64,000 bases of DNA from an uncultured SAR116 cluster alpha proteobacterium. GTDB lineage: Bacteria; Pseudomonadota; Alphaproteobacteria; Puniceispirillales; GCA-002684695. Shown here one piece after another: positions 1,535 through 28,442 of the stretch. The first letter of the stretch is position 1; each line of letters opens with the position of its first letter. The notes below the pieces were generated by a model. It was not told where the DNA came from and searched no databases. It saw nothing but the letters and a program-made list of their open reading frames with translations. Made by a program: the position numbers and the translations under genes. The stretch is taken from assembly GCA_902522415.1 (NCBI GenBank), contig CABYVI010000003.1, positions 5,092-69,091 of the forward strand, written 5' to 3'.

Positions 1535-1550
1535 TGGCACAAGCATTGCT
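1535..1550 (+). promoter_or_regulatory. Sigma-54 (-24/-12) promoter upstream of flgG
   Basis: TGGCAC-AAGCA-TTGCT, exact consensus spacing, about 40 nt before the flgG ATG. Confidence 0.7.
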
Positions 1551-4220: not shown

Positions 4221-4541
4221 ATGGAAAATTTTATCACACCAGGCTTAGATCCAAAAACTTCTTTTGAAATAAGTTCGAATAAGACTAAAAAATTAAATGC
4301 AGACACTACAAGCTTAAATGAAGCAGCAGAGAGATTTGAGGCTTTATTTTTATCTCAAATGCTCAAATCAGCGAGAGCTGCAAAATTATCAGAAGATATA
4401 ATGGGCAACAATGCAACAGATACTTACTACGCAATGATGGATAATGAATTGGCAGAAAAATTATCAAAGGCAGGTAATTTTGGGATTGCAGAAGCTCTTA
4501 TCAGACAATTTGGTGGAAATGTAGAGGACAAAGATAAGTAA
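4221..4541 (+). CDS. flgJ: FlgJ-like rod-binding protein (rod-binding domain only, no muramidase domain)
   Basis: 106 aa; AAERFEALFLSQMLKSAR rod-binding motif; lies between flgI and flgK; stop overlaps the flgK ATG (TAATG). Confidence 0.7.
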   Translation: MENFITPGLDPKTSFEISSNKTKKLNADTTSLNEAAERFEALFLSQMLKSARAAKLSEDIMGNNATDTYYAMMDNELAEKLSKAGNFGIAEALIRQFGGNVEDKDK

Positions 4542-7500
4542 TGTCTAGTTTATTTGACATTGGTAAAAGTGCTGTTCAGTCATACCGTCAGGCATTGGCA
4601 GTAACTGGACAAAACATAGCTAATGTTAACACAGATGGATATAAAAGAAGAGAAGCTGACCTCAAAGAGGTTGGAGCTAGTAGTGGCAGTGTTACTTCAA
4701 CTGGTAATTCAGCAGGCCTTGGTGTTCGTGTAGAAAATATAAGAAGGTCATTTGATCAATTTTTATTAGATCGCTCAAGAAGTTCAATTGCAAATTATGA
4801 AAAACTAAAGTCTTACACAGATCAAATGAAGCAACTCGAAGATATTTTGCTCCCAGGTGACGCTGATATCGGTAGTTATATTGGTAGATTTTTTGGTGCT
4901 TTACAGGACATAGCTGCTAATCCTGGCGATCTTGCTCCTAGAACTGTTGCTCTTGAAGAGGGGAAAAGTCTGGCTGGTGCTTTTAGAAATCTATCTTTTC
5001 AACTAGAAGAAATGCAAAAAAATGGAAAATCTCAAGCTGATGATACTTGTTCGGCAATTAATATTGTTGTAACTCAATTAGTTGACGTAAATGAAAGGCT
5101 ACTATCTTCAAGTCTGGGAAGTTCTCCAAACTCAACTCTAGACTTAAGAGACAGGCTTCTTGAAGAATTATCAAAATTAACCGATATATCAGTTTCATAT
5201 AACGAGAGAAAAGACGTAACTGTAACAATTGGTAAAACAGGTGCAGGGCCAAAATTATTATCTGGGAAAATTGCAACAAAAATTGGAGTAGCAGATACGG
5301 GCGGTGTTATACAGGTTTTAATGGGTGCCGGAACATCAAACACTCCTACAAATCAAGTAACAGGTGGCGTTCTTGGAGGAGTTATAGACTCTTATGCCTT
5401 GATTGGTGATACCAATAGAGATATTGATAATCTTGCAGTTTTAATTTCTGAAACATTAAATGATCAGCATAAACAGGGTATTACTCTTGATGGAAAAGAG
5501 GGTGAAAATATTTTTGTAACCTCTGGTATGACTGTCAGTCCAGGTAGAGCAAACAGATCTTCTGTATCAGCAGAAATTGTTATAAGTGATATTGAAAAGC
5601 TTCCAAAGGGCCAACTTACAGCAAAATTTAATGAAGTTCAGAATAGATGGACACTATCTGGTTCATCTTTAGAAAACAATATTTTTGGAACGAGTGAAAT
5701 TAAAGGACCAGGTTTCTCATTAAATATTTTAGGCAAACCAACAGATGGAGACGAATTATCAACCACTCCACTTACTGGTGCAGCTTCAGGTATGCAATTT
5801 ATGTTGAGAAGGGCACAAGATTTTGCAGCTGCTTCAAAAACATTGGTTAGTGCAACAGTTTCAAATAAAGGAACTGCAGATATTACAGCAAGTACAGGAA
5901 AAATAAAAACGTCCGATAATCCTCCATTATTGAATAATGTATTTACAAATTCTAATTCTCCCCTAACAGCAACAAATTTTCTAAGTGATGGAGCTGTTTC
6001 TGCAATACCTACTGGATCACAAGAGGCGGATATTCTTAGTTTCAAAACTCAATCACAAATGAGTTTTCAATTAACTGAGGCCGAAATACCAACAACTACT
6101 TCACTGACACTCGAAGTAAATAGTGTTCCTCATGTATTTGACCTTACTTATTCAAGTGTATACCCGAAAGCAGTTGCATCAGAAAAATGGAAATCTTGCG
6201 GTGAAATTGCAACAGCTTTAAACAGAGGTATAATTAAAAATTCTAATTCACAAACACTTTCTGATTTAGGCCTTTTTGCCTCAGGATCTGGAGGAAGCAT
6301 AACGTTTGCATCATCTGAAAACGACTTCTCAGGCCAGTCAACTATTAGTTCAGGTGGCGGTACAATTTTAGGAATAAGCAAAGCATCAGCACTTCCATCA
6401 AATGTTCAGGTTTTTACAAGAGAGGGAAGGCATCTAGCTGGGACACCCCTTACGAAAGAAGATATTGCAAAACTTGTTACCATTGACAATGGCTTTAATG
6501 AGGGAGCAAGTTACAGAGCAGATTACATAAATTTAAGTGGTGATAAAGCATACAGAGGCTTGTCTTTAGAAAGAAAGACTGCAACAGGTGACCATGTAAT
6601 TACCTTGGGGTCTAACAGTAATTCGGTTACTGCAAATACATCAGGAATTGGTTCATCAATTGGTGCAACAATTACGACAGGAACAAATCACGGTTTCTCT
6701 ACTGGAGACACTGTTCAGTACCTCGCTAATAGTACTGCCCTAACTGGATTAACTGATAAAGCAGTATATAAAGTAGCATCTATTAATGGTACAAATCAAT
6801 TTACTCTCACAAAAACTGATGGAACAACACTTACTTACGGAGGTAGTAACGGCCATGCTAATGATAGTTTTAAACTTTTTAACGTTAATTCATCAGGTAT
6901 AATTCCATCTAAAACTATTTTCCCATCAAGTGCTGTATCTGCTTATAATGCAAGTATATCAATGTTTGGCGGTGAGAGCGGAAATATTGATATTCCAGCA
7001 GGTTCATCTGCAGGATTTTCTGCAAATAAAATAAATACTGACCTTGCAAATCTTGGCGTCCAAGCAGAAGCCATTACTAGGGTTGAATTGTCAATGGCAG
7101 AAATTGGTTCTCTGTCCTATGGTCAAACAAGAGTCAACCAGGGTTCTGGATCACCAGCTATAAGCTTATCATCTACTTCCACAAATGGTGCAGCAACTGG
7201 TGAAACAGAGTTTAAAGTTGGCGATATTATAAAATATGAAGCTGTTGATGACCATGCAACAAATGGTGGGCCTTTACAGGGATTAACTGAGTTTGCTGAA
7301 TATATGGTTGCAAGTGTTTCCTCTAACAGTATAACATTAAAAAATACAGATGGAACTTCATTAACCTATGGAAACACAGGCGGGGCAACAGGGGTTGCAT
7401 CTCATTTCGATAGTTTTACCTTGGTTAGAAGAACAGGCCAAGTAACATTAGACTTTGAGTCCAAGAACCAGGATGCAATCAATATTTCAGCTACAATTTC

Positions 7501-10500
7501 ATCTGATGATATGACCGATCTAGCAAAGAAAATTAATGAGCACTCTGCAAATACTGGAGTGACAGCATTTTTATCAGTTGATAAGAAAAAAGTGGTTCTT
7601 GAGAGTAAAGACGGTGACGATATAATGATGACAAATTTTTCATCATCAAGTCCACCACTTAATTTAAAATCACTAGGAGAAAACTTTGAAACTCTTGGTA
7701 ATGAGGTAAAATTAGATAATACTAACTTTGATGCAGCAAGATTTACTGGCTATGTTAAATTGAATGCTGGAGGATCATTTTCTTTAACAACAAACGCTGG
7801 TTCAAATAACTCAACAGTCTCTAGTACAACTGATATTTTTGAAAATAGCTTTATAGAAAAAAGCATGACACCAACTGGCGAGCAAATGACTCTAAAATTT
7901 GATGCATTTGAGGGTGCTGATGGAAATGGATCTTCAGTTGACGGTTCTATGGCTCTTGCTGCAGGTGGCGAGTATAAATTGACAATTCCTAATACTGGTT
8001 CAGGGACCTCATTCTCATCTACAGTCAAAACTAAAGATTTAGAAAGTATCACATCAAATACTGTCGCTGCAGAAATAGCAAAAAAATTACGCTCTGATAC
8101 ACTCATAGCTTCGGTATCAGGTAAAAGTTCAGTAAATGAATTACCTGAAGCAGGAGACAAGTTAGTTGTAAAATTTGCAGAGCAAAATTATACACTTACA
8201 ATGCTTGATAATGGACGTGATGCAGTGCCTGCAACTGCTACGTTAAGTGTAAGCAACGCAGATACAGTTGCAGCTGCAGGAAACCGAATTCATCTAATTT
8301 TATCAGCCGGCATGGAACCAGAAATTGATTTGGATTACACTGTTCAGGCAGGTCAAACTAATATTTCAAGTATAGTTTCAGGACTTAACACTGCTCTAAA
8401 TACTGCAGGAGCTTCTGATAAATACTCATTTTCATTCAGAGGAACCAATTTAATTTTATCTAGAAAGGATGGAGTTAATTTTCAATCATACAAGGGTGCA
8501 AATCAAACAACAAATATACTATTTTTTGATGGTGTTGATATTAGAACTGGAGCTGGTAGAGAGACTATTAATGGCGCAACAACAAATAAAACGCTAATCA
8601 CAACAGATGGGAAACTTTCTGTTGAGAGAGAAATTGAAATATCTGGTGGTGAAAAGAATAGGCTTAATGCTTATTTTGATGAAAATAAAAAGTTACAAAT
8701 TTTTGCTGGTGGGAGTCTTTCTGGACAGCAAATAATAATTCCTGATGATAACTCTGTTTCAGGTAATAGTAGTGCTGCCACTAGATTTGGAATAGATCGA
8801 GCAATAGGAACATTAACAGGAAATGAGATTGCAGTCCCTGCAACAACTTCGACTACGAATGTTAAAGTAGGTGATATTGATTATACTTTAACCATTAATC
8901 CAAATAATGGTGGTAAAGTAACTGCAGAATTAAAAGATGGAAATAATATTGTTCCAACTAACATATTACTCGATGCAACTGTAAACTGGATGAGCAATAT
9001 TATTACTTCAGATACAACGAGTATTGCATCTTCAGCTGGTGCAGTTATCACTTCTGATAGTGATCACGAATTTAAGGTTGGAGACAAAGTAAAATACTTT
9101 AAAGGAGGCACTGCACTTACTGGGTTAACACATAATACTGAATATACAGTTGCATCCATTGTAAAAAAATCTAGCTCTCAAGCTAATACGGTTGGCCTCA
9201 CGCGAGCTGCTAGTTCCACAATAACAACTGCTAATGCTCACGAGTTTAAGGTTGGAGACTTTGTAAAATACGTAAAAGGCGGGACGAATAACCTTCAAAG
9301 TCTGACTGATGGGGAGGTTTATAAAATAAAAGAGGTTGTTGGCACCAATCAATTTAAACTTCAAACAGCTGGTGGCAGTGACTTCACTTACGGTGGAACT
9401 GGTGGTAGTTCAGCAGATGCATTCATCCGATTTGACGGCTTTTCGTTAAAAAGTGCAGCAGGTGCAACCATTACTTACGGTGGTGGAAACGGCCACGCAG
9501 CTGATCAGTTTGTAAAATCAGAAAATATTAGAACCGCTGATACAACAGGGCAAACGAACAATACATCTGCAACAATAACAGTTGGTGAGGGTCACGGATT
9601 TAAAGTAGGAGATTCTGTGACTTATATTCCAGCGGGAACAAGCGTTCAAGGATTAGGGGCAAATATCAACTATAGAGTAAAAGCTCTTATTGGCTCAACT
9701 GGAATTTCGCTACAGACAACAGCAGGCGCTGATTTTGCTTACTTGGGAACAGATGGAAGTGCAAATGATGTTTTTGTAAAGGCTAACGGAAGAATATCAA
9801 TAAAGACCAATCCATATAGTAATAAGGAATATAAATTTGATCATACTGCTAACGCTGAGGCTCTAGGTATTAAAGTATCGGACTACAGAGTTAATGTTGA
9901 CAATGATAAATTAGTAATTGCATCCACTGAAGGAAAAGTTGTTTCTGCTGATACAACAGGAAGCAACACAAGCGTTAAAAGCTTAATTGGAAGCAATATT
10001 AATATTAAAAATGTTGGCAATGAGGATTTAATAATGATTGTCAATGGCGGTGGCGCAAGAAGTGTCGCAACAAGGTCTGACCCCCCTGCCCCAAATTATG
10101 AAGCAAAACCTTCAAACATTGACATCAAAGTTGCAAACGCTGAGGGTAGTGTTATCGAATTCCTTGATGCAACCACGGGTCATTCAATCGCTACAAGAAC
10201 ATTAGACACTGTAGGTAGAGCTGAAGCTGCTGGTTATAAAGTTGTTGTCAAAGGTAAAGGCCAGCTCGATGACAGTTTTAAAATATCAGACAATGCTGGT
10301 GGAACAGGTGACGCAAGAAACTTAGATGCCATGATAATGCTTCAAACTGAAGATGCAAATGGTCCTAATTCAGGTGGGTTCAGAGAAGTTTTTGACAATA
10401 TTGTCACAGGTGTAGGAGCATCAGTATTATCAGGCGGTCTATCTTTAGAGGCAGCTGAAGCAACAAAAGAAGCGGCAATTGCATCAGAACTAGAATTTTC

Positions 10501-10621
10501 TGGTGTGAGTTTGGACACTGAAGCTGCACAGCTTCTGGAGCAACAACAAGCATTTCAAGCTTCTGCAAGAATTCTATCAACTGCTAAACAACTATTTCAA
10601 ACATTACTAGACGTAGTGTAG
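4541..10621 (+). CDS. flgK: Giant hook-filament junction protein FlgK (HAP1), 2026 aa
   Basis: N-terminus SSLFDIGKSAVQSYRQALAVTGQNIANVNTDGYKRR and C-terminus EAAQLLEQQQAFQASARILSTAKQLFQTLLDV are FlgK-type. The ~1500-aa central region contains flagellin-IN-like motifs and five HGF-x-x-GD modules. Confidence 0.85.
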   Translation: MSSLFDIGKSAVQSYRQALAVTGQNIANVNTDGYKRREADLKEVGASSGSVTSTGNSAGLGVRVENIRRSFDQFLLDRSRSSIANYEKLKSYTDQMKQLEDILLPGDADIGSYIGRFFGALQDIAANPGDLAPRTVALEEGKSLAGAFRNLSFQLEEMQKNGKSQADDTCSAINIVVTQLVDVNERLLSSSLGSSPNSTLDLRDRLLEELSKLTDISVSYNERKDVTVTIGKTGAGPKLLSGKIATKIGVADTGGVIQVLMGAGTSNTPTNQVTGGVLGGVIDSYALIGDTNRDIDNLAVLISETLNDQHKQGITLDGKEGENIFVTSGMTVSPGRANRSSVSAEIVISDIEKLPKGQLTAKFNEVQNRWTLSGSSLENNIFGTSEIKGPGFSLNILGKPTDGDELSTTPLTGAASGMQFMLRRAQDFAAASKTLVSATVSNKGTADITASTGKIKTSDNPPLLNNVFTNSNSPLTATNFLSDGAVSAIPTGSQEADILSFKTQSQMSFQLTEAEIPTTTSLTLEVNSVPHVFDLTYSSVYPKAVASEKWKSCGEIATALNRGIIKNSNSQTLSDLGLFASGSGGSITFASSENDFSGQSTISSGGGTILGISKASALPSNVQVFTREGRHLAGTPLTKEDIAKLVTIDNGFNEGASYRADYINLSGDKAYRGLSLERKTATGDHVITLGSNSNSVTANTSGIGSSIGATITTGTNHGFSTGDTVQYLANSTALTGLTDKAVYKVASINGTNQFTLTKTDGTTLTYGGSNGHANDSFKLFNVNSSGIIPSKTIFPSSAVSAYNASISMFGGESGNIDIPAGSSAGFSANKINTDLANLGVQAEAITRVELSMAEIGSLSYGQTRVNQGSGSPAISLSSTSTNGAATGETEFKVGDIIKYEAVDDHATNGGPLQGLTEFAEYMVASVSSNSITLKNTDGTSLTYGNTGGATGVASHFDSFTLVRRTGQVTLDFESKNQDAINISATISSDDMTDLAKKINEHSANTGVTAFLSVDKKKVVLESKDGDDIMMTNFSSSSPPLNLKSLGENFETLGNEVKLDNTNFDAARFTGYVKLNAGGSFSLTTNAGSNNSTVSSTTDIFENSFIEKSMTPTGEQMTLKFDAFEGADGNGSSVDGSMALAAGGEYKLTIPNTGSGTSFSSTVKTKDLESITSNTVAAEIAKKLRSDTLIASVSGKSSVNELPEAGDKLVVKFAEQNYTLTMLDNGRDAVPATATLSVSNADTVAAAGNRIHLILSAGMEPEIDLDYTVQAGQTNISSIVSGLNTALNTAGASDKYSFSFRGTNLILSRKDGVNFQSYKGANQTTNILFFDGVDIRTGAGRETINGATTNKTLITTDGKLSVEREIEISGGEKNRLNAYFDENKKLQIFAGGSLSGQQIIIPDDNSVSGNSSAATRFGIDRAIGTLTGNEIAVPATTSTTNVKVGDIDYTLTINPNNGGKVTAELKDGNNIVPTNILLDATVNWMSNIITSDTTSIASSAGAVITSDSDHEFKVGDKVKYFKGGTALTGLTHNTEYTVASIVKKSSSQANTVGLTRAASSTITTANAHEFKVGDFVKYVKGGTNNLQSLTDGEVYKIKEVVGTNQFKLQTAGGSDFTYGGTGGSSADAFIRFDGFSLKSAAGATITYGGGNGHAADQFVKSENIRTADTTGQTNNTSATITVGEGHGFKVGDSVTYIPAGTSVQGLGANINYRVKALIGSTGISLQTTAGADFAYLGTDGSANDVFVKANGRISIKTNPYSNKEYKFDHTANAEALGIKVSDYRVNVDNDKLVIASTEGKVVSADTTGSNTSVKSLIGSNINIKNVGNEDLIMIVNGGGARSVATRSDPPAPNYEAKPSNIDIKVANAEGSVIEFLDATTGHSIATRTLDTVGRAEAAGYKVVVKGKGQLDDSFKISDNAGGTGDARNLDAMIMLQTEDANGPNSGGFREVFDNIVTGVGASVLSGGLSLEAAEATKEAAIASELEFSGVSLDTEAAQLLEQQQAFQASARILSTAKQLFQTLLDVV

Positions 10622-11934: not shown

Positions 11935-11960
11935 TAAACATTTTTTTATATTGACGTTTA
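11935..11960 (+). promoter_or_regulatory. Sigma-28-like promoter of flagellin 1 (TAAA-N14-GACGTTTA)
   Basis: TAAACATTTTT...GACGTTTA. The same TAAACATTTTT box and the same 14-nt spacing occur at 14335-14360 before flagellin 2. Resembles TAAA-N15-GCCGATAA. Confidence 0.45.
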
Positions 11961-11967
11961 TAAATAA

Positions 11968-12024
11968 TGAAGTGGTCAGCGCCCTTCAAAAAATTAATAT
12001 TATTTAGTCAATGAAGGGATAGTT
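11968..12024 (+). promoter_or_regulatory. Flagellin 1 leader: hairpin with GGTCAGCG loop plus alternative RBS-sequestering pairing
   Basis: TGAAG-TGGTCAGCGCC-CTTCA hairpin. CCCTTCA can instead pair with the RBS repeat TGAAGGG at 12012-12018. Confidence 0.5.
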
Positions 12025-13557: not shown

Positions 13558-14100
13558 TTATTTATCAGATGGCTTCAAAGATATAGCATCAAAAATTGTA
13601 AATTCTTCAGTAGCCAGATCTCTTAAAAAATCAATATCTTTCTCGTCGTCAATTTTCCATCCACTGGGTGACGGTTTGCTTAAATCAGATCTCAGTGAAT
13701 ACATATAAGACTTAAACATTTTTATAATGCCTCTTTCTTCGTAATTACGATCTCTTTCTCCATCAAAAATTGATCCAAGAAGCGGTTTGCGATTTCTGAT
13801 TTTACCATTATCAAAGTTAATCGTATTATATATGAAACCGTCTAGGTACTTAGTTGCATCTGAACCCGCCTCTACTTCTGCTAATATCCTAATTATATCT
13901 TCTGCAATTGATGAGATCTCAATTGGATTGACTTCGTCATATTTTTCTAAAAGAGCTTTAGAATATCTTCTTGCCACTAAGTCGATGGGTATATCCTTGA
14001 CAAGAAAATCTCTAGCTGTAAGACCAATACAAGCTGCGTAAACCCATTGAGGGCAATATACAGCCATTTTACCTCCACTAGATAATAAGTTTGATAACAT
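13558..14100 (-). CDS. Hypothetical protein (180 aa) on the opposite strand inside the flagellin array
   Basis: Intact ORF, convergent with flagellin 1; no recognisable motif. Confidence 0.4.
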   Translation of the reverse strand: MLSNLLSSGGKMAVYCPQWVYAACIGLTARDFLVKDIPIDLVARRYSKALLEKYDEVNPIEISSIAEDIIRILAEVEAGSDATKYLDGFIYNTINFDNGKIRNRKPLLGSIFDGERDRNYEERGIIKMFKSYMYSLRSDLSKPSPSGWKIDDEKDIDFLRDLATEEFTIFDAISLKPSDK

Positions 14101-14334: not shown

Positions 14335-14360
14335 TAAACATTTTTACTATATGCCGTTCA
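14335..14360 (+). promoter_or_regulatory. Sigma-28-like promoter of flagellin 2 (TAAA-N14-GCCGTTCA)
   Basis: TAAACATTTTT...GCCGTTCA, same architecture as 11935-11960. Confidence 0.5.
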
Positions 14361-14370
14361 TTTACTTGTA

Positions 14371-14434
14371 CGGAGGTGGTCAGCGAAAACCTTCTCCGCG
14401 TTTAAATTTAATTAACTCGGAAAGGAGACAAAAA
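14371..14434 (+). promoter_or_regulatory. Flagellin 2 leader: hairpin with GGTCAGCGAAAA loop and anti-SD arm
   Basis: CGGAGGT-GGTCAGCGAAAA-CCTTCTCCG. The 3' arm CCTTCTCCG is also complementary to the RBS region CGGAAAGGAG at 14418-14427. Confidence 0.5.
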
Positions 14435-17658: not shown

Positions 17659-17674
17659 TGGCATGGTATTTGCT
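17659..17674 (+). promoter_or_regulatory. Sigma-54 promoter of the 802-aa flagellin
   Basis: TGGCAT-GGTAT-TTGCT, 40 nt upstream of ATG 17714. Confidence 0.7.
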
Positions 17675-17713: not shown

Positions 17714-20122
17714 ATGAGTATTTTAACAAATTTAGCGGCTTTAAAATCGCTGTATCACATAAATCAGAATGAAGGTGAATTCTCTACTTCAGTAGAAAGA
17801 GTGTCTTCTGGTAAAAGAGTAAATAACGCAGGCGATGATGCTGCAGGCGCATCAATCATCAATAGAATGACATCTCAGGTACAGGGTATGAGCGTTGCAA
17901 TAAGAAATGCTGGAGATGCTATTTCTATGGCTCAAGTAGCTGAAGGCGCACTCGATGAAACAACAGAAATTTTACACAGACTGAGAGAAATAGCTGTTCA
18001 GTCTGCTAATGGAACTTACAGCGGCGCGAATAGAGTTGCACTAAACGCCGAAGTTGTTGCATTAAAAACAGAGTTATTAAGAATCGCTGAATCTACAAAA
18101 TTTAATGATGTAAAATTATTAAATGGGCAATTTCAAGATACTACATTTGCTATTGGTTATGATGAAAGTCCCGGTCATACACACTCATTAAGTATTGAGT
18201 CTGTAAAGCCAGATGACCTTGGTATGTGGACAATTACAACCGAACAGGAAAATACTGCCACTCTTAAAACAAGTGGAATGGGAAATTATGGAGAAGCTGC
18301 AAATATAGACACTGCAGCTGATCATTTATTTGAAACAGGTGATATTATTACTTATGAACAGGGACCAGCTGCTACAAGTATTCCAGTTCCAGGTCTAGTA
18401 GACGGGAAAAGTTATAAAGTGACAGTTGTTGACTCTGATTCATTTACTCTTACACATCTTGATGGATCAAAGGTTAAATATGGCGCAATCTCAAATTTTG
18501 GCACACCATCAAATGCTAAATTTCATTTACAAAGTATCTCTAATGCACCAACAGTAGGCTTGTCCAAAGGTTCTTACGCAGCCACTGGGGGAACTGATCA
18601 ATCAGCACCAGCATCAGAGGTTTTAAAAACAGAAGATGTTATGGTCCACGGACATGTTGGTTCATCTGAAGTACAGTTAAGAACTGGAATGACAGCTCTT
18701 GAAATTGCTAATGCAGTATCAAATATGGATTCACTTACCGGTGTTCGTGCTTCAGCAGTAACAAATGCTCGAATAACAGTATCACCAAGCGATAATACTG
18801 ATGATAAGCATGTGATTGCATTTGATTTGCAGGGTATGAATACAACTACACCAGTAAAAATTTCAGCAACCATAGGATTTGGTACAGGTGACGAAGTTCA
18901 TTCAGCAGACCTCTCTGATCTAAGAGATAAAATTAATGGTTTCACAGGCACAACAGGAATTTATGCAAAACTTTCATCAGACAAAAGCTATATTGATATA
19001 AAATCACCAGATGGATATGATGTTGTAATTGACAATGTGGATATGCCAACTGACACCGGCACAACGTTAACCCAAGCACTTGTTAACGCGAGTGGAGCAA
19101 ATACGAGTGATACAATTACCTCAGCATTAGCTCATGGATTTCAAGTAGGTGACATGATTAAGCTAACGGATGTCCATGGTGAAACAGGACTTGTTGGAAT
19201 AGATATGGAAACAACCTATTTTGTCAAAACTGCTCCAACATCTACAACCTTTACTTTAGCAACAGGTTCGCCAGATGGAACAACTGTTGATATTACAACA
19301 ACCAACAACGGTCATTTAGAATTTACTAAATTAGAAAAAACACTTAACCTTCAGACACTTGACAGAGACCTTAATGTAAAAGGTGGCAAAGTAAAGTTAA
19401 TGGATAAAGACATTGAATTACAAGGCTCTGGAGTTGGTGCTGTTATGACATCAGTAGCGTCAAGTGCATCAAATGCAAATATTACCTGCAGCAATGACCA
19501 TAGGTTGCAAGTTGGAGATGTTGTAAAATATACTGTAGGAAGTGTAGTTATTGCTGGATTGACAGATGGTGAATTCTACAAAGTTAAGGCTACATCATCT
19601 GATACAGTTTTTACATTAGAGAATTTAGATGGAACCGATCCTACTTATGGTGGCTCTGGAACTGGTGGCACATTTACTAAAGTAGTATCAAATGAAAATT
19701 CATTGCGACTAACAGGTGAAGTTCAATTTGAATCTGCTTATACATTTACTGTTGTTCCAGCAGTTCAGGACTCTTTATTCAGAGCAGCACCACCTGCAGC
19801 AAACTTAAATAAAGTTTCAGATCTTGATGTTTTAACAGTTGAAAAGTCACATAAATTTCTTACAGCTCTTGATGGAGCTATTAAAAGAATTGACGCAGAA
19901 CGTGGTGACCTTGGTGCGACAATGAATAGAATGCAACATACAATTGATAATTTATCAAATGTAATTGTTGGGACTAAATCAGCACGTGGCAGAATTGAAG
20001 ATGCAGACATGGCTGCAGAAACTGCTAATCTAGCAAAAAATCAAATTCTCCAGCAAGCAGCAACCGCAATGCTTGGTCAAGCAAACCAATCAATGCAAAC
20101 AATTCTTACACTTCTAAGATAA
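17714..20122 (+). CDS. fliC: Large flagellin (802 aa) with three HGF-x-x-GD-type modules in the variable region
   Basis: RVSSGKRVNNAGDDAAGASII N-terminus, DLGATMNRMQHTIDNL...GQANQSMQTILTLLR C-terminus; flagellin-IN-like motifs; modules at about 18300-18532, 19108-19330 and 19465-19686. Confidence 0.9.
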   Translation: MSILTNLAALKSLYHINQNEGEFSTSVERVSSGKRVNNAGDDAAGASIINRMTSQVQGMSVAIRNAGDAISMAQVAEGALDETTEILHRLREIAVQSANGTYSGANRVALNAEVVALKTELLRIAESTKFNDVKLLNGQFQDTTFAIGYDESPGHTHSLSIESVKPDDLGMWTITTEQENTATLKTSGMGNYGEAANIDTAADHLFETGDIITYEQGPAATSIPVPGLVDGKSYKVTVVDSDSFTLTHLDGSKVKYGAISNFGTPSNAKFHLQSISNAPTVGLSKGSYAATGGTDQSAPASEVLKTEDVMVHGHVGSSEVQLRTGMTALEIANAVSNMDSLTGVRASAVTNARITVSPSDNTDDKHVIAFDLQGMNTTTPVKISATIGFGTGDEVHSADLSDLRDKINGFTGTTGIYAKLSSDKSYIDIKSPDGYDVVIDNVDMPTDTGTTLTQALVNASGANTSDTITSALAHGFQVGDMIKLTDVHGETGLVGIDMETTYFVKTAPTSTTFTLATGSPDGTTVDITTTNNGHLEFTKLEKTLNLQTLDRDLNVKGGKVKLMDKDIELQGSGVGAVMTSVASSASNANITCSNDHRLQVGDVVKYTVGSVVIAGLTDGEFYKVKATSSDTVFTLENLDGTDPTYGGSGTGGTFTKVVSNENSLRLTGEVQFESAYTFTVVPAVQDSLFRAAPPAANLNKVSDLDVLTVEKSHKFLTALDGAIKRIDAERGDLGATMNRMQHTIDNLSNVIVGTKSARGRIEDADMAAETANLAKNQILQQAATAMLGQANQSMQTILTLLR

Positions 20123-20184
20123 CAAGTAATTTTAATTTTAGTTCAGAGCCTTTTTGAGGTTTGAATAGTATAAAGGCTAAGTGA

Positions 20185-21624
20185 ATGGAAAATAATTTTG
20201 TTGTTAATAAATTAAAAAATGACAATAACTTAATTTCTTTTCACAATCAGGCCGATATATACAATAACAAAGGTCTTGACTTTTTTCAAAATAATGATTT
20301 TGGGAATGCACTAATCTGCTTTTTCCAAGCTTTGACCCATGATAAGAATTATGCTCATGCATATTCCAATATAGGTAATATTCTCATTCAAAAAGGTGAA
20401 TTTGAAGAAGCTATTAGTATGTATCAAAAAGCAATAAATATTGATAATCAGAATAGCTTATATCATTTCAATCTCGGAATAGCTTATTCAAATGTTAATA
20501 ATAATAAAGCATCTGCTAAAGAATATAAAAGAAGCTTAAAATTAGATCCAGGTAACTTAAAAGCTTATAAATTTCTCGGAAATTGTTACATCAAATTAAA
20601 AGATTTCAAAAAAGCTATCGATACCTACCGAAAATGGTCAGAATTAGATCCCCAAAACCCAGAACCAAATTTTATTCTCGGGCAAATACATGTGAGAAAT
20701 GGACGCTTTAATTTAGGATGGAAATTATACGAATACGGATTGAAGAATAATATAAGAAAACCTTTAAGTGGCTTTTATCACGAAAAAAAGGAAATATGGG
20801 ATGGAAAACCATTTAACGGGTCACTTCTCGTTTACGGTGAACAAGGTCTTGGAGATCAAATAAACTTTGGAACTTTACTTTTTGAACTCCTAAAAATTCA
20901 AAAGAACGTTTGTGTAAAAGTAAATAAAAAATTAGTTGATTTATTTACTTGTACTTTTCCAACAATGAGAGTTTTCAGCGAGGAAGAAGAAATTCCGCAA
21001 AATGTTTACGATAAATATATTGCTCTTGGAAGCCTAAATAAATTCTTAAAAAAACATACAAATGATTATCTTAATTCAAAATTTTATCCATTAAAAGTAC
21101 ATGGCAATAGATACCTCGAGATTAATAATTTTTTTTCTAAACTAAATGGTTTTAATATAGGAATATCCTGGCACTCTTTTTCTAGTAAAACAGGCAAAGA
21201 CAGATGCTTGAAAACACATGAATTAGCTAAAATTGTTAGTGTTCAAAATATTAATTTTTTCAATATCCAGTATGGAAATGTACATAATCAGGTCAAAGAA
21301 GTTAATTTTACTTCAGGTAAAGAGATTTTGAGAGTGCCTTTCGTTGATTTGACTAATGATATTTCATCAGTAGCTGACATTATTAATAATTGTGACTTAA
21401 TAATTTCTGTAGACAATACAACAGCACATTTAGCTGCTGCTTTAGGTAAACCTGTTTGGTTATTATTGCCTTTTAATGCTGACTTTAGATGGATGGAAGA
21501 TATTACAACATCTCTCTGGTATAAAAATGTCACTTTAATTAGACAACAAAAAGAGCATGATTGGTCTAATGAAATTGAAATAATTTACAACTCACTAAAT
21601 AGCTCAAATATAGACAAAAAATAA
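20185..21624 (+). CDS. TPR-repeat protein fused to a GT9-like (heptosyltransferase-fold) glycosyltransferase domain; FlmG-like architecture, candidate flagellin glycosyltransferase
   Basis: N-terminal TPRs. C-terminus has EQGLGDQINF, GISWHS, DLIISVDNTTAHLAAALGKPVWLLLP, FRWMED..SLWY. Location next to the flagellins. Confidence 0.7.
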   Translation: MENNFVVNKLKNDNNLISFHNQADIYNNKGLDFFQNNDFGNALICFFQALTHDKNYAHAYSNIGNILIQKGEFEEAISMYQKAINIDNQNSLYHFNLGIAYSNVNNNKASAKEYKRSLKLDPGNLKAYKFLGNCYIKLKDFKKAIDTYRKWSELDPQNPEPNFILGQIHVRNGRFNLGWKLYEYGLKNNIRKPLSGFYHEKKEIWDGKPFNGSLLVYGEQGLGDQINFGTLLFELLKIQKNVCVKVNKKLVDLFTCTFPTMRVFSEEEEIPQNVYDKYIALGSLNKFLKKHTNDYLNSKFYPLKVHGNRYLEINNFFSKLNGFNIGISWHSFSSKTGKDRCLKTHELAKIVSVQNINFFNIQYGNVHNQVKEVNFTSGKEILRVPFVDLTNDISSVADIINNCDLIISVDNTTAHLAAALGKPVWLLLPFNADFRWMEDITTSLWYKNVTLIRQQKEHDWSNEIEIIYNSLNSSNIDKK

Positions 21625-21640
21625 TTTTCAGAAGGTTTAA

Positions 21641-23833
21641 ATGCACGATATTATTCTATCTCTTGATCAATTAATGACCAGTTCCATTCAAGCAAATAAA
21701 TATGGAAATAAAACTCAAGCATTAAAATATTTTAAAAAATTTGAGGATAAAAAAAATGAAGCCATAGAATTGGCTAAACAGGCTGCTAAAGATGGTAATG
21801 TCAAATTAGTTGATGAAATACTTGGATGCTTAAACAAGTTAAAAAATTATTACAAAACTAATTTACCTGTTGAAACAAAAGAAGAAAATAAACATAGATT
21901 AGAAGAAATATTTGCAATCTATAATCAAGGAAATTTTGAAAAAACCATTTCAATTATTAAGAGCCAACTAGAAAAAAATAATCAAAATCCCAATTTATAT
22001 AACTTATTAGCTTTAAGTTTTTTTAATATCGGAAAGTTAGATCACTCAATTAAATCTTTCCATGAAGGATTAAATAGTTTTCCAAATAATTTTCATTTAA
22101 ATAATAATATTAGTGTTGTTTATAAAGAAATAAAAGATTTTGATAAAGCTTTACTCTATGGTTTAAGAGCTTTTAAGATTGATCCCAATTCTGATGAAGC
22201 ATCTACCAATTTAGGTAATATTTTCTTCGAAACTGAGAACTACGATAAATCTTTATTGTACTTTAAAAAGTCAATTTCACTTAACCCACATAATTCAACC
22301 ACAATTTACAACTTCGCAGTCTGCAACTTAAAATTAAATAATTACAAACTTGCTGATGAAGCTATTAATCTAGCTTTAAGACATCAACCAGATAATCATG
22401 AATTTTTGAATGTTAAAGGACAAATTTTAAGAGAAATGGGAAGACATGATGCATCTGAAGAGTTTTTTTACAAGGCTTTGGATTTAAATTCTAACTCAGT
22501 TTTGACCTTGAATAATTTAGGAATTTTATTACAAGACAAAGTCAAATATAAAGAATCATTAGTTATATTCAAAAAAGCATTAAGTATAGAACCTAATAAT
22601 ATTAATTTTCTATGTAATATTGCCAATTCTTATTTACACCTTGGAAGTAATAAAAAAGCAATTGAATACCTTGATAAATGTTTAATAGTTAACCCAAATT
22701 TTGATAAGGCTTTTTCATTAAAAGGGATAATTTATGCTCATTTAGGACAGAAAGAAAAGTCAGTAAAGAGTTTTAAAAATGCAATTAAAATTAATAACTT
22801 TAACGCCGATGCATATAGGCAATTATCAAGACTTCAAAATTTTAAGACAGGTGACCCTCTCATAAAACAAATGGAACAAGTTTATGATAATAAGTTTTTA
22901 ATACCAGAAGAGAGAGCAATAATGTCTTTTGCATTAGGAAAAGGTTATGAGGATCTTAAAGAATATTCAAAAAGTTTTAATTTTTATAAAAATGGTAATG
23001 ATTTTTATAAAAACAAATACAGACCTCAAATCATACCAGAAGAAGTTTTTTTTAAAAATTTAGCTAAAACAAGTATTAATATTGATACGAATAAAAAGTT
23101 ACTAAAATATAATTTAAAACCTATTTTTGTTTTAGGCTTACCAAGATCTGGAACATCTCTTATTGAACAGATACTATCATCTCATTCTAAAGTAGAAGGG
23201 ATGGGAGAATTAAATTCACTTAGTAAATTTATTGAAAGTAATCTAATTACATATAAAGAAGGGTTTTCTCCAATTATTAAAAAATTTAATAAGGAAGAAC
23301 AAATAAATTTATCCAATTTTTATATGGATTCAGTTAAAACTATTGATAGCAGCGCAAAATATTTTGTTGATAAAATGCCACATAATTTTAGATGGATAAG
23401 TTATATTTTAAATTCTTACTTTTCAGCAAAAGTAATTCTGGTTGAAAGAAATCCCATGGACAATTGTTTTTCCTTATTCAAAATGCTATTTTCTTCAAGA
23501 CAACAACATTCATATTCATTTGATCTTGAAGTACTAGGAAAATATTATTTGATATATAAGGACTTAGTTAACCATTGGAAAGAAATGTATAAAAATAATA
23601 TCTATACTTGCAAATATGAAAAACTTATTTCAGATCCAGAGACTGAAATAAAAAAATTATTAGATTTCTGTAACATTAAATGGGAAGATAAAATAATGAG
23701 ATTTTATGAGACAAAAAGGTCAGTTAATACTGCTAGTCATACTCAAGTAAGACAAAAATTGTATTCTAGCTCTATTGGTTCATGGAAAAACTATGAAAAT
23801 GAATTACAGCCTCTGAAGAAAATTATTAACTAA
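21641..23833 (+). CDS. TPR-repeat protein fused to a C-terminal sulfotransferase domain
   Basis: About 10 TPRs, then a PAPS-binding 5'-PSB-like motif GLPRSGTSLIEQILSSH and a sulfotransferase-type C-terminus (VERNPMDNCFS ... YEKLISDPETEIKKLLDFC). Confidence 0.7.
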   Translation: MHDIILSLDQLMTSSIQANKYGNKTQALKYFKKFEDKKNEAIELAKQAAKDGNVKLVDEILGCLNKLKNYYKTNLPVETKEENKHRLEEIFAIYNQGNFEKTISIIKSQLEKNNQNPNLYNLLALSFFNIGKLDHSIKSFHEGLNSFPNNFHLNNNISVVYKEIKDFDKALLYGLRAFKIDPNSDEASTNLGNIFFETENYDKSLLYFKKSISLNPHNSTTIYNFAVCNLKLNNYKLADEAINLALRHQPDNHEFLNVKGQILREMGRHDASEEFFYKALDLNSNSVLTLNNLGILLQDKVKYKESLVIFKKALSIEPNNINFLCNIANSYLHLGSNKKAIEYLDKCLIVNPNFDKAFSLKGIIYAHLGQKEKSVKSFKNAIKINNFNADAYRQLSRLQNFKTGDPLIKQMEQVYDNKFLIPEERAIMSFALGKGYEDLKEYSKSFNFYKNGNDFYKNKYRPQIIPEEVFFKNLAKTSINIDTNKKLLKYNLKPIFVLGLPRSGTSLIEQILSSHSKVEGMGELNSLSKFIESNLITYKEGFSPIIKKFNKEEQINLSNFYMDSVKTIDSSAKYFVDKMPHNFRWISYILNSYFSAKVILVERNPMDNCFSLFKMLFSSRQQHSYSFDLEVLGKYYLIYKDLVNHWKEMYKNNIYTCKYEKLISDPETEIKKLLDFCNIKWEDKIMRFYETKRSVNTASHTQVRQKLYSSSIGSWKNYENELQPLKKIIN

Positions 23834-23834
23834 A

Positions 23835-25391
23835 TCAAAAAAGTTTATTTTTACAAATTTCAATTAATTTCAAAATTTCCTTGTCCCATGACATTGTCTT
23901 TCTTAAAATATAGGTTTTTGGATACCAAAGACTATTAGTACTATTATCAAACCATCTCCAGTCACTTACTTCAGGGATTAGTGCCACAGTATCTTTTTTA
24001 AGTAAGCTTGATAAATGAAGTGTTGAATTATCTATTGAGATAACCATATCGCAAGCTAAAATTTTTTCAGCTAGTCCTTCAATATTATTTTTATTATCAG
24101 TGTTATCTTCAACAAAAAGACATTTTTTAATTTTTTTAGAAACGCGATCAATTTCCGTTTTAAAATCGCCATATTGAAGGTTAATAAAATTTGCATCTAA
24201 ATTTGTAAAGAGGGGGGCAAATTGTTTTAATTTAATATTTCTCTTTGGTCCAAGCTGTTTATTATTAGTATGCCAAGAAATGCCAATAGTGACTTTATTA
24301 TTATTAATTAATAATTTTAATTTATTTCTCTTACTTTTGTTCTCGGTAAAATTAAAATTAGTTGCTCTAGCAAAATCACTTTCTCTTTTTAGAAAATATT
24401 TACAAAGAGATCCAATAGGAAGATAAGATTCGTATTTTTTTTCTATTGCCTCATCAAATGTTGTTATAAATTCATGTTTTATGTCAGATATACGAAATAA
24501 ATTCTTTAGTCTTTCATCCAGTAAAAGTCCTAATCTATACTTTTTTGAATCTAAATTTTTCAAAAGCGATGAAAACATTAATTCATCACCTAAACCCTGC
24601 TCACCTACAATTAAAATTGAGTTAAAATTTAAATTTGGCTCCCATTTTGGAAGTATGCTAAGAGCTTTTTTTTCTACTCTAAGTTTCCTTTCCCCAAGTT
24701 CAATACCTATTTCGTATCTGTCCCAACCAGCATCAAAACATTTTTCTTTTAAATTTATTATTCCAAGGTTATATTTTGCTTTTTTAGAAGACAACCTGCT
24801 TAATATTTTCTTGGATTTTTCTAAAAATCCTAGTTGATACAAATTTGATGCTATATTTAATTCTACATCATGTCTCTTTTCATTTAAATTTGAAATTTTA
24901 GTGTATTCTGACAAAGATTTTTCAAAATCTCCTTTTAAAAAAAAGATTTTACCAAAAAGGTCAATAACTTTATAAGAATTAGGTTCGATTTTCTTAGCTT
25001 TCTTGGCATAAATCAATGAGTTTTCAAATTCTTCATTTTCATAGAATATCTTTGATATTTCTATTATTGTTTTTACACAAAGAGGTCTAATTTTATGCGA
25101 ATGGAGATAGTGTTTCATTGCAATTTTTGGTTTTTTTGCATCTCTAAATAAATTTGCTAAATTAAAATAATTATCAAATTCATTTGGAAATAAATCACAT
25201 AAAATTTGGAAGTATTTTATAGCTTGAGAAAATTTTTTCTGTTTAGCCAATGAAACAGCAAGCAAATTACATAACCACGGATCAGTAAACCCCTTACTTA
25301 AAAGATAAGTGGCATCTTGTTCAACGTTGTAATAATTACCAGAGTTATAAGTGTTTAAAATTTTATTTTTAAAGTTTTGGCTTACAAGCAT
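23835..25391 (-). CDS. Second TPR plus GT9-like glycosyltransferase fusion, immediately downstream of fliD
   Basis: TPRs; EQGLGDELMF, GISWHT, DMVISIDNSTLHLSSLL, DWRWFDNSTNSLWYP; paralogue of 20185-21624. Confidence 0.7.
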   Translation of the reverse strand: MLVSQNFKNKILNTYNSGNYYNVEQDATYLLSKGFTDPWLCNLLAVSLAKQKKFSQAIKYFQILCDLFPNEFDNYFNLANLFRDAKKPKIAMKHYLHSHKIRPLCVKTIIEISKIFYENEEFENSLIYAKKAKKIEPNSYKVIDLFGKIFFLKGDFEKSLSEYTKISNLNEKRHDVELNIASNLYQLGFLEKSKKILSRLSSKKAKYNLGIINLKEKCFDAGWDRYEIGIELGERKLRVEKKALSILPKWEPNLNFNSILIVGEQGLGDELMFSSLLKNLDSKKYRLGLLLDERLKNLFRISDIKHEFITTFDEAIEKKYESYLPIGSLCKYFLKRESDFARATNFNFTENKSKRNKLKLLINNNKVTIGISWHTNNKQLGPKRNIKLKQFAPLFTNLDANFINLQYGDFKTEIDRVSKKIKKCLFVEDNTDNKNNIEGLAEKILACDMVISIDNSTLHLSSLLKKDTVALIPEVSDWRWFDNSTNSLWYPKTYILRKTMSWDKEILKLIEICKNKLF

Positions 25392-25393
25392 TT

Positions 25394-27631
25394 TTAGTCA
25401 CTATTCTGAGCTTCCATGAAGTTATCTAGGTATTCACCAGTAGATTTAAAGCTATTTACAACAGATTCCATTGCTCCATACTGTTCTTTATATCTATCAC
25501 GCAATTTTTCAATATCTTTATCTAATTCAATCAAGTCTTCATTGTATTCATTTAATTCTTGGTTAAGTGTGTTTGTTCTTGTAGACAATGATCCTGAGTT
25601 TGAAAGTATAGAGTTGAGATATTTTGTAATAGTTGAAACATAACTATTACCTATTGAAATATATGCATCTGAACCTGGAGCAACAACTCCAAGACTAAGT
25701 CCAAAAGCATCACCAGATAAAGTTCTAAATCCCGTTGATGTTTGCTCAATTGAAGATCCTGCAAGTGTGGCACCAGTAACATCTCCAGTCCCTGAAACAA
25801 CTGTACCGCCCTCAATTCCAAGAAAATTATTCAATCCGCTGTCAATTGAATTTATAACAATGTTACTTTCTGAACCATATTTTTTAGAAGTAATCACATA
25901 CTTTCCATTTAAGTAAGACACTGTTACACCCTCACCTTTAACAGCCAGAATGTTATCTGCATTTATTGCAGTTTCAAGTGCATTTGCTAAAGATGAAGTT
26001 GTAGAAAATGGACCGCCAGTGACGTTTATTGTATTTGATGTTACTCCATTTAATGTTATTGAAAGACTTTGGCTGCCATTTGATGGTGTATAGTTTGAAG
26101 CTGTAATATCTGTAGATGGGGAGCTACCAGTGAGTGTTGCTTGAGTTCCAATATCAAAAAAGTAATATCCAGGTTTATAATTTGAGCCTGTTAAAAATGG
26201 TGATATAAAAGATGAAGTGCTATGCAGTCTATCTGAAAAAAGTGCTGTTAAAGCTTGAGGGTCTTCTTTAAATGCTAAGTCAAACATTCTTTCATTAAGT
26301 TTAAGCCCGCCAGTTTTAGTAGTTGAAACTCCTAAATTAGCCAAATAAATAGGTTTTTCCCCGTAACCAAAAATTGGTTCAGTAGTTAATTTTCCTAACC
26401 TATCAGAGATTGCACGAATTGATGAATCACCGGCAAGAGCTCCCTTTTTTCCACCGTTCAAACCTCTTTCAGTAAGTTCACTTAGTTGACTTGCAAGATT
26501 ATTAACTTCTTCTACTAAACTCTCTAAAGCTGAGAGCACTTTATCTTTTGAAGTGGAAACTGATACAATAGCAGGAGAGGAGGTAGTATTAACTAATGAT
26601 AGGGTTGCTCCATCTATAACATCAACAATTTCATTATTGCTTCTTGAAATTGAAACACCATCAACTGTAAATGAAGCATTTTGTGCGTTTGCTGTCTCTG
26701 TGTTTGTTCTTAAAAAAGTATCATTTGAACTTCCATTACCTCCACCATATGTAATTGTATTCCCATTGCTATCATTTAAAGTAAATGACGTGGTAGATGG
26801 AACAGATGCAATTTTATACGATGTGAGAGAAGAAAGTCCATTTAAAGCTGTACCACCAGCTAAGTACTGAACAGTATCACCAACTTTTAAGCCATGTGCA
26901 GATGTTGAATTTAATACCGCTCCTGATGAACTTGATATAGCCGAAGTATTTGATGTATATGTAGTATGTTCTATAGATTTCAAACCCGAGTTTGAACCCT
27001 CAGTTATATCTATTTTAAATGCATTTGATAAACCAGTATTAGATCTTAGAACTAAAGCATAATCTGAAGTATCTTTTTTTACAATAGATGCAGTTACTCC
27101 AAGATTACCAAGATTTATTTTATCCTTAATATCAGTTAACGAATAAGCCGAGTTAGAAATACTCACTGTTTTTTGAGAATAAGACGTATCAGCTGTAAAT
27201 ACCCCATTGGACCACGTACCCTTTTGAAAAACAATATCACCATCACCAACAAGAGCACTACTTGAAGCAAAACCATCAAAAACAAGGGTCTGTGACGATG
27301 CGAGTTTAGAAACATTTATTGAGCTTGTAATCTCTTTAACAGAAGCAGGATCTGTAACGGTTAATGCAACGGAAGTACTAGTACTGGAACCCTCAAAAAC
27401 ATTTGTTCCTTCCATAGCATCAATTATTTTTGTTGATTCTGATATAGATTTTTTCAATTCAGCGATTGCAGAAATAGAAATTTCATTTTTCTCTATTTTA
27501 TCATTAATTTTTTTCTCTTTTGGAGCTCTTTCTGCTGTAATGAGGTTTTTAATTAATTCAGTCGTATTTAATCCACTTCCGACGTTTAATGCACTAAAGA
27601 CATCAGTTTCTGACATTTTGTAATTATCCAA
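25394..27631 (-). CDS. fliD: Filament cap protein FliD (HAP2), enlarged (745 aa), with one HGF-x-x-GD-type module
   Basis: N-terminus GSGLNTTELIKNLITAERAPKEKKIN, C-terminus LIELDKDIEKLRDRYKEQYGAMESVV; module SAHGLKVGDTVQYLAGGTALNGL... at about 26709-26935. Confidence 0.9.
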   Translation of the reverse strand: MDNYKMSETDVFSALNVGSGLNTTELIKNLITAERAPKEKKINDKIEKNEISISAIAELKKSISESTKIIDAMEGTNVFEGSSTSTSVALTVTDPASVKEITSSINVSKLASSQTLVFDGFASSSALVGDGDIVFQKGTWSNGVFTADTSYSQKTVSISNSAYSLTDIKDKINLGNLGVTASIVKKDTSDYALVLRSNTGLSNAFKIDITEGSNSGLKSIEHTTYTSNTSAISSSSGAVLNSTSAHGLKVGDTVQYLAGGTALNGLSSLTSYKIASVPSTTSFTLNDSNGNTITYGGGNGSSNDTFLRTNTETANAQNASFTVDGVSISRSNNEIVDVIDGATLSLVNTTSSPAIVSVSTSKDKVLSALESLVEEVNNLASQLSELTERGLNGGKKGALAGDSSIRAISDRLGKLTTEPIFGYGEKPIYLANLGVSTTKTGGLKLNERMFDLAFKEDPQALTALFSDRLHSTSSFISPFLTGSNYKPGYYFFDIGTQATLTGSSPSTDITASNYTPSNGSQSLSITLNGVTSNTINVTGGPFSTTSSLANALETAINADNILAVKGEGVTVSYLNGKYVITSKKYGSESNIVINSIDSGLNNFLGIEGGTVVSGTGDVTGATLAGSSIEQTSTGFRTLSGDAFGLSLGVVAPGSDAYISIGNSYVSTITKYLNSILSNSGSLSTRTNTLNQELNEYNEDLIELDKDIEKLRDRYKEQYGAMESVVNSFKSTGEYLDNFMEAQNSD

Positions 27632-27653
27632 ATAAATTATTTACATAATAATT

Positions 27654-27669
27654 TGCAAAAAAAATGCCA
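27654..27669 (-). promoter_or_regulatory. Sigma-54 promoter of fliD (minus strand)
   Basis: The reverse complement reads TGGCAT-TTTTT-TTGCA, about 23 nt upstream of the fliD ATG. Confidence 0.65.
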
Positions 27670-27692
27670 AAAATATCATATTTTATATGCAC

Positions 27693-27708
27693 AGGCATAG
27701 ATATTGCA
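27693..27708 (+). promoter_or_regulatory. Sigma-54-like promoter, divergent from the fliD promoter
   Basis: AGGCAT-AGATA-TTGCA (GG-N10-GC kept), 24 nt before ATG 27732. Confidence 0.55.
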
Positions 27709-27731
27709 GAAAAATTTTAAGGAGTTAAAAT

Positions 27732-28440: not shown

Positions 28441-28442
28441 AT

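Follow-up and report, generated by a model that had tools for sequence, protein, structure and literature searches.

A module of approximately 74 residues recurs nine times in the flagellar gene cluster of the window analysed here, a 64,000-nucleotide stretch of contig CABYVI010000003.1 from an uncultured alphaproteobacterium of SAR116, one of the most abundant marine clades. Five copies are located in the hook-associated protein FlgK, three in an 802-residue flagellin and one in the filament cap protein FliD. The copies are, in our judgement, very probably homologous and represent an insertion domain of the type found in the ubiquitin-E1 FCCH domain and the endosialidase β-barrel. The module is proposed to decorate the outside of the flagellum as a coat; this function is put forward tentatively, and the identity and function of the module, taken together, form a reading that we favour with modest confidence.

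Nine module copies in three axial proteins

The three host proteins, each bounded by conserved terminal domains, are encoded as follows.

4541..10621, + strand: flgK, 2026-residue hook-associated protein 1 with five modules (Pfam FlgK_D1, Flg_bb_rod and Flg_bbr_C; NCBIfam flgK_ends, 242.9 bits)
17714..20122, + strand: flagellin of 802 residues with three modules in its central variable region (Pfam Flagellin_N, residues 3-139; Flagellin_C, residues 716-801)
25394..27631, − strand: fliD, 745-residue filament cap protein (Pfam FliD_N, residues 19-114; FliD_C, from residue 316; NCBIfam FliD models)

The module follows the motif (A/S)TIT-x4-HGF-x-VGD-x-V-x-Y ... GL ... Y-x-V ... F-x-L ... G ... 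TYGG-x-G-x3-D-x-F. A hidden Markov model (HMM) built from the FlgK copies alone was searched against all six-frame open reading frames (ORFs) of the window, with hits ranked by independent E-value (i-E), and located the copies at the positions listed below.

6665..6883, + strand: FlgK module 1, residues 709-781 (HMM; predicted local distance difference test, pLDDT, of 94.8 for this copy in AlphaFold2)
7193..7426, + strand: FlgK module 2, residues 885-962 (HMM)
9041..9163, + strand: FlgK module 3, N-terminal half, residues 1501-1541, HMM positions 1-41 (i-E 1.7e-18)
9215..9436, + strand: FlgK module 4, residues 1559-1632, complete and nested in module 3 (i-E 1.1e-34 over the full HMM length)
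9434..9523, + strand: FlgK module 3, C-terminal half, residues 1632-1661, HMM positions 42-70 (i-E 4.8e-11)
9569..9787, + strand: FlgK module 5, residues 1677-1749 (HMM)
18299..18520, + strand: flagellin module 1, residues 196-269 (FlgK-only HMM and broader family HMM)
19103..19339, + strand: flagellin module 2, residues 464-542 (both HMMs)
19472..19690, + strand: flagellin module 3, residues 587-659 (both HMMs)
26699..26920, − strand: FliD module, residues 238-311, between the FliD_N and FliD_C regions (FlgK-only HMM, i-E 8.4e-25)

The three flagellin copies were recovered by the FlgK-only HMM with i-E values of 6e-11, 5e-7 and 2e-15. FlgK module 2 lacks the His of the HGF motif and contains two small insertions. 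No further copy was found by this HMM at i-E < 0.1 in the six-frame ORFs of the window, including those of the three flagellins of 500-533 residues, FlgL and the rod and hook proteins, and a broader family HMM returned the identical nine copies and none additional. Both models therefore agree with the original prediction, made from the sequence alone, that three axial proteins carry nine copies between them while the three shorter flagellins carry none; its coordinates in FlgK all fall on real copies, as judged by translation and HMM, and the example sequence it quoted is correct.

Profile–profile alignment of the FlgK copies against the flagellin copies with hhalign gave a probability of 99.0% and an E-value of 7.1e-18, a significant similarity. 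All nine copies also scored 38-58 bits against an HMM derived solely from 66 modules of unrelated proteins. Low complexity or Thr/Gly/Ser-rich composition does not account for the similarity, given the HMM and hhalign values, the scores against the external profile and the confidently predicted fold described below.

The modules of FlgK and of the flagellin are placed between conserved N- and C-terminal axial regions, and that of FliD between FliD_N and FliD_C. The corresponding regions of solved flagellin, FlgK and FliD homologues are outer regions; by analogy with these structures, the position between conserved axial termini implies that the modules would be surface-exposed.

At 2026 residues, FlgK is several times its usual length, with normal ends and an insert of about 1500 residues according to Pfam and NCBIfam. 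Approximately 1000 residues of the insert, outside the ends, one Flagellin_IN motif and the five modules, have no match of any kind.

Fold and relatives of the module

The module was modelled with AlphaFold2 from a 77-sequence alignment of diverse modules. The model is a small all-β barrel predicted with high confidence (pLDDT 94.8, predicted template modelling score 0.82).

No Pfam or NCBIfam model reaches threshold on the module, and no well-known flagellar domain family was matched. The most frequent Pfam match among the 77 diverse modules is E1_FCCH (PF16190; 14 modules, best E 2.8e-5), followed by End_beta_barrel (PF12195; 12 modules, best E 1.5e-4), with any other family matching two modules at most. 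Within the window, E1_FCCH scores 20.8 bits against the whole of FlgK and 22.8 bits against the flagellin, below its gathering threshold of 29.5 bits, with a best E of 0.0056 against single copies; End_beta_barrel scores 16.8 bits (E 0.0068) against FlgK copy 1, below its gathering threshold of 35. Among phage protein families, PHROG 584 (major tail protein) was matched by six of the nine copies, with a best E of 4.4e-6, across profile positions 32-89 of 218 in its N-terminal region, PHROG 2885 (baseplate wedge protein) by four (E 9.8e-5), and phrog_15694 at E 7.9e-6. These matches are significant and point to homology with phage tail families at the level of the domain only.

The same neighbourhood emerged from searches of solved structures. 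A sequence-profile search of the PDB identified the phage tail protein gp15 (10lj), the phi92 endosialidase (4hiz) and, weakly, the FCCH domain of Uba1 (2lzj). The top ranks of a Foldseek search of the PDB were occupied by the phi92 and K1F endosialidases, the P22 coat I-domain and Uba1/Uba6, all with weak E-values: 4hiz was the top match (probability 0.94, E 0.05, TM-score 0.45), and Uba1/Uba6 were found with probabilities of 0.2-0.66, TM-scores of 0.4-0.5 and E-values of 0.2 or weaker. Against predicted viral structures in BFVD, Foldseek reached a probability of 1.0 and TM-scores of up to 0.82, the matches being cyanophage baseplate wedge initiators, tail fibres, tailspikes and a tail sheath protein. 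The structural check suggested by the original prediction thus gave a confident β-barrel with phage-type neighbours. Neither profile searches nor Foldseek found a solved flagellar protein with this fold in the PDB.

Sequence and fold both point, with sub-threshold scores, to small insertion β-barrels of the FCCH or endosialidase-barrel type, and the module's solved relatives are domains inserted in loops of larger proteins. The original prediction could not name a family; an approximate name is now available, namely the superfamily containing the ubiquitin-E1 FCCH domain and the endosialidase β-barrel. Literature searches returned nothing relevant linking FCCH with flagellin, or endosialidase with a flagellin outer domain. 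A tblastn search of phage GenBank records, with the FliD module as single query, gave no match, and therefore provides no evidence of recent phage-to-host transfer.

Identity with Flagellin_IN (PF07196) was considered and rejected: its matches lie outside every module (FlgK residues 969-1024 and flagellin residues 398-425), and no module matches its profile, consistent with the earlier view that the two are distinct. Flagellin_IN occurs once each in FlgK, FlgL and all four flagellins of the window.

A copy nested within another copy

At the level of sequence, FlgK module 3 is split by module 4: its two halves are separated by a linker and the whole of copy 4 (residues 1559-1632). The point of splitting maps to the loop between the central β-strands E34-40 and E45-49 in the AlphaFold2 model of copy 1. 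When spliced together, the halves align end to end with the external profile at 56.4 bits, on a par with any contiguous copy. An AlphaFold2 model of FlgK residues 1492-1762 has a strand pattern that fits the nesting, at a pLDDT of only 67.9.

The arrangement is conserved. All five copies and the nesting were retained in each of the 13 FlgK orthologues found, down to 57% identity, and orthologues at 57-94% identity have the same length and module layout. The FliD module is likewise kept in SAR116 relatives whose FliD proteins are 97%, 77% and 62% identical.

Distribution beyond the flagellum

An exhaustive profile search yielded 1954 representative proteins, each standing for a cluster at 50% identity, at E <= 1e-3, of which 496 were matched at <= 1e-10 and 78 at <= 1e-30. 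The total of 1954 clusters is a lower bound on the size of this large family. Most are giant unannotated surface proteins, many of them 4-8 thousand residues long with up to 18-24 matched stretches; named carriers include a LEPR-XLL domain protein from a Methylococcaceae metagenome-assembled genome (MAG) and hypothetical proteins of Syntrophales and Pirellulales MAGs. The 13 carrier proteins tested had no Pfam match at all. Among the best 150 matches are about eleven flagellins (520-1771 residues), three FliD clusters and one cluster of FlgK fragments. A word-indexed protein search with the nine-copy alignment found only short frameshifted fragments of close relatives.

The module is neither flagellum-specific nor confined to the SAR116 lineage. 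The 1954 clusters consist mostly of non-flagellar giant proteins. The sense of the original prediction that the repeats recall phage tail-fibre or large adhesin proteins was well placed, given the significant PHROG matches, the BFVD fold matches and hundreds of giant surface proteins. The module is therefore less exotic than had been supposed, being a widespread domain of the phage-tail and giant-adhesin type.

This distribution bears on an alternative in which the module is mainly a lectin or adhesin, so that the hook-proximal filament, the junction and the cap would bind polysaccharides or marine particles and any structural role would be secondary. Members of the family are plentiful in giant adhesin-like secreted proteins such as the LEPR-XLL domain protein and are also present in phage proteins that recognise the host. 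The endosialidase β-barrel, which gave the best PDB match by both sequence and fold, carries a polysialic-acid binding site (PMC12632334). However, the similarity to this barrel is sub-threshold; the strongly conserved G, D, Y, L and G residues resemble core or turn residues rather than a binding pocket, and no ligand has been demonstrated for many relatives, among them the FCCH-like domains of tail tubes and the P22 I-domain. A mainly adhesive module appears rather unlikely on this evidence.

Recurrence in a second lineage

One of the FliD clusters includes a protein of Litorivicinus sp., a gammaproteobacterium. A Litorivicinus-like locus, with a G+C content (GC) of 50%, encodes a 1667-residue flagellin with four modules and a 741-residue FliD with three, and a related metagenomic locus encodes an 832-residue FliD with four. 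The gammaproteobacterial FlgK has no module in its readable part. In gammaproteobacterial loci L004 (4962-12226) and L005 (4963-12499), the flagellin and FliD genes stand next to genes for FlaG, NeuB, a CMP-sugar transferase and GT41.

In pairwise comparison the modules group by lineage and not by host protein. The FlgK and FliD copies of SAR116 are nearest neighbours at 45-54% identity, as are the flagellin and FliD copies of the gammaproteobacterium at 55-63%. Because the modules cluster in this way, movement between flagellar genes is suggested, and the simplest reading of the sequences is that the module has been duplicated repeatedly and passed from one flagellar gene to another of the same genome. 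Giant FlgK proteins of related marine alphaproteobacteria (1411-1780 residues, one of them labelled Parvibaculales) are without the module; its acquisition by FlgK is therefore specific to this clade.

These comparisons also bear on whether the module has any specific function. It could be neutral or antigenic-variation filler, a stable and readily inserted domain that drifts into hypervariable flagellar regions, perhaps evading flagellotropic phages or grazers: flagellar outer regions tolerate many unrelated inserts (PMC6248924), the related giant FlgKs do without the module, and its copy number varies between lineages. Against this, the number, order and nesting of copies are kept down to 57% identity in FlgK and 62% in FliD, and flagellin and FliD were jointly equipped with the module in each of two distinct bacterial classes. 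This conservation and parallel recruitment argue for selection on a shared property and against pure neutrality, which makes the filler explanation improbable.

Genomic context and the TPR gene island

The window begins with the 3′ end of flgE, followed by flgF, flgG, flgH, flgI, flgJ, flgK and flgL. After flgL come the three flagellins of 500-533 residues and then the 802-residue flagellin. Beyond it lie three genes for tetratricopeptide repeat (TPR) proteins, the first GT9-like and the second with a sulfotransferase domain; fliD, on the minus strand, comes after them and is itself followed by a fourth TPR gene. Downstream of this island are fliS, two σ54 activators, fliF, fliG, fliI, fliK, fliM and others. 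The four TPR proteins, all encoded between the large flagellin gene and fliD or shortly after the latter, are positioned as follows.

21641-23833: TPR protein with a Sulfotransfer_3 domain (Pfam, E 1e-39)
20185-21624; 23835-25391 (minus); 28544-30163: the other TPR proteins, one of them GT9-like

The FliD protein shares 97% identity with its counterpart in a single-cell genome labelled ‘uncultured SAR116 cluster alpha proteobacterium’ and 62% with that of a second SAR116 genome, in which the gene order is the same. Two ORFs in the flagellin and fliD region, 13558-14100 (minus strand, 180 residues) and 27732-28367 (211 residues), have no Pfam match; the latter has 90% identity to a counterpart in a SAR116 relative (locus L001). 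Over the TPR/fliD island (20001-32000), GC falls to 26-30%, from about 37% in the flanking flagellar genes, and the island may be a hypervariable or horizontally exchanged glycosylation island.

The TPR/sulfotransferase gene suggests, from its predicted domain content, a sulfated flagellar glycan. Flagellin glycosylation islands are common whatever outer domain is present. The module might accordingly be taken for a substrate or docking platform of the neighbouring TPR glycosyltransferase, sulfotransferase and other TPR proteins, carrying a dense and possibly sulfated glycan coat. SAR116 relatives have the four TPR genes in the same arrangement near the large flagellin and fliD, Ser and Thr make up 23% of module residues, and the second lineage also has sugar-nucleotide and glycosyltransferase genes beside its module-bearing flagellin and FliD. 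Yet the three module-free flagellins encoded in the same island are equally possible substrates, and the general occurrence of such islands counts on the same side. The second lineage's enzymes are different ones (NeuB, CTP_transf_3 and GT41), the neighbours of the module-rich flagellin P0085 are unrelated and include no flagellar or glycosylation genes, and most family members belong to giant proteins and phage tails without such enzymes nearby. The docking site for TPR enzymes envisaged in the original prediction is therefore weakly grounded, a dedicated one being unlikely in view of the module-free flagellins, the differing enzymes and P0085, and the glycan-platform explanation as a whole strikes us as quite improbable.

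Promoter motifs

The window was scanned for σ54-type −24/−12 boxes as TGGCAY-N5-TTGC, giving 13 matches where 2.5 are expected by chance. Three of these precede genes connected with the module.

1535..1549, + strand: σ54-type box TGGCAC-N5-TTGC, a perfect match, before flgG (consensus scan)
17659..17673, + strand: σ54-type box 40 nucleotides upstream of the start codon of the 802-residue flagellin (consensus scan)
27655..27669, − strand: σ54-type box just upstream of fliD (consensus scan)

The genes flgG-H-I-J-K-L follow the first box contiguously, without sizeable gaps. The three module genes are probably co-expressed, because all follow σ54-type boxes.

The enteric σ28 consensus has no match upstream of the three small flagellins, and its 14 matches in the window are marginally above the 7.5 expected. 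A looser motif, TAAA-N14-G(C/A)CGTT, is common to two of these three flagellins. The regions upstream of the first two small flagellins (11935-11990 and 14335-14385) have in common a TAAACATTTTT-N-...G(C/A)CGTT sequence and a GTGGTCAGCG element; the third is without the TAAACATTTTT...G(C/A)CGTT and GTGGTCAGCG element. These elements could represent a lineage-specific σ28-like promoter together with a regulatory motif in the 5′ untranslated region. Of the promoter division claimed originally, the σ54 part is borne out by boxes before the large flagellin, fliD and flgG, whereas the σ28 part found no enteric match before the small flagellins and, for two of them, the looser motif. A split of the flagellins between σ54 and σ28 promoters remains plausible from these motifs.

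In the long intergenic stretch between the last TPR gene and fliS, two identical σ54-like boxes (TGGCATGACTATTGC) are located at 30414-30428 and 30537-30551, 123 nucleotides apart, with more such boxes at 30173 and 30920. They could be repeated promoters or mark small unannotated genes.

Proposed role

The preferred reading, a decoration coat, can be set out as a sequence of steps. The module is very probably a self-folding, insertion-tolerant small β-barrel from a family without a Pfam model, distantly related to the FCCH domain, the endosialidase β-barrel and outward-facing domains of phage tail-tube, baseplate and fibre proteins. In the SAR116 lineage it appears to have been duplicated and moved between flagellar genes. 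It is now present in variable inserts that would be surface-exposed: five times in FlgK, once within another copy, three times in one flagellin and once in FliD. In the assembled flagellum the barrels would project outward and cover the junction, the cap and the filament segment made of the 802-residue flagellin with a shared outer coat. Such a coat would give a thicker, more robust surface, probably with weak glycan- or particle-binding, and would be analogous to the FCCH-like or immunoglobulin-like decoration domains of phage tails. Expression of the three module genes would fall in the middle flagellar class, before that of the module-free flagellins, so that the decorated flagellin would lie next to the hook.

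Several points weigh against this proposal. No match to a named family reaches its curated threshold, and none of the Foldseek E-values is stronger than 0.002. AlphaFold2 predicts the nested region with moderate confidence only, and the reconstitution of a split barrel is argued from sequence, not from a three-dimensional structure. The positions and contacts of the barrels in the flagellum are inferred, the promoter boxes are consensus matches only, and the idea of glycan binding comes from one distant relative. FlgL, which lies between FlgK and the filament, has no module, so that any coat would be discontinuous.

A broader possibility joins decoration and binding. The module could be a general decoration or lectin domain for helical tubes, in phage tails, giant adhesins and flagella alike, which was co-recruited into the σ54-class axial proteins of SAR116 and of the Litorivicinus-like gammaproteobacterium. 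It would produce a glycan-binding, thickened hook-proximal segment and cap, with the flagellum doubling as an attachment organelle, and the nested FlgK copy would represent a fold that has naturally been inserted into itself, one domain within another. In this full form the scenario is unlikely.

What is new is that flagellin, FliD and FlgK share one module, that it recurs in a second lineage, that one copy is nested in another and that the family has no database model. Junction, filament and cap proteins can evidently share an outer module, as seen in two bacterial classes, and the two-class recurrence suggests that a surface property common to the entire distal flagellum is under selection. 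A family model, absent from both Pfam and NCBIfam, would annotate many giant ‘hypothetical’ surface proteins as well as phage tail proteins. With its conserved self-nested copy, FlgK offers a clean natural case of a fold that tolerates insertion, which is potentially useful for the engineering of flagellar or phage display.

Comparison with known systems

The endosialidase β-barrel (PF12195; 4hiz of phi92, 1v0e and 3gvk of K1F) is the best PDB match of the module by profile (E 0.02-0.045) and by fold. Both begin with HG(L/F)-x-VGD-x-V-x-(F/Y), and both are small barrels within a larger protein, that of the endosialidase being located on a surface-exposed virion fibre. They differ in that the module is longer at its C terminus, where it has the TYGG-x-G-x3-D-x-F tail, and in that the host of the endosialidase barrel is a depolymerase, whereas here the hosts are flagellar axial proteins. 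The I-domain of the P22 coat protein (2m5s) is also a small, surface-exposed β-barrel inserted in a structural protein and is matched by Foldseek with a probability of 0.98 and a TM-score of 0.62, although it is larger (124 residues), shares 14% sequence identity and has no sequence-level signal.

Among flagellar elements, Flagellin_IN is comparable as a short repeated element of the variable regions of flagellins and hook-associated proteins. The DE regions of giant flagellins (PMC6248924) resemble the module-bearing inserts in being central, surface-exposed insertions of an out-and-back axial protein, enlarged by internal duplication, in marine bacteria. By its published description, the DE region is set apart as a different and much longer unit, described in flagellins only (PMC6248924), whereas the module is common to flagellin, FliD and FlgK as well as to non-flagellar giant proteins and phage tails.

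The FCCH domain of E1 enzymes sits within the adenylation domain, unlike the module, whose hosts FlgK, flagellin and FliD provide no E1 context. The copies in the window are repeated and nested, not single. The FCCH-like domains at the N terminus of siphovirus tail tube proteins (PF08813 family) face outward (PMC13576161), and this projection from a helical tube is the same geometry as that proposed for the module on the flagellum.

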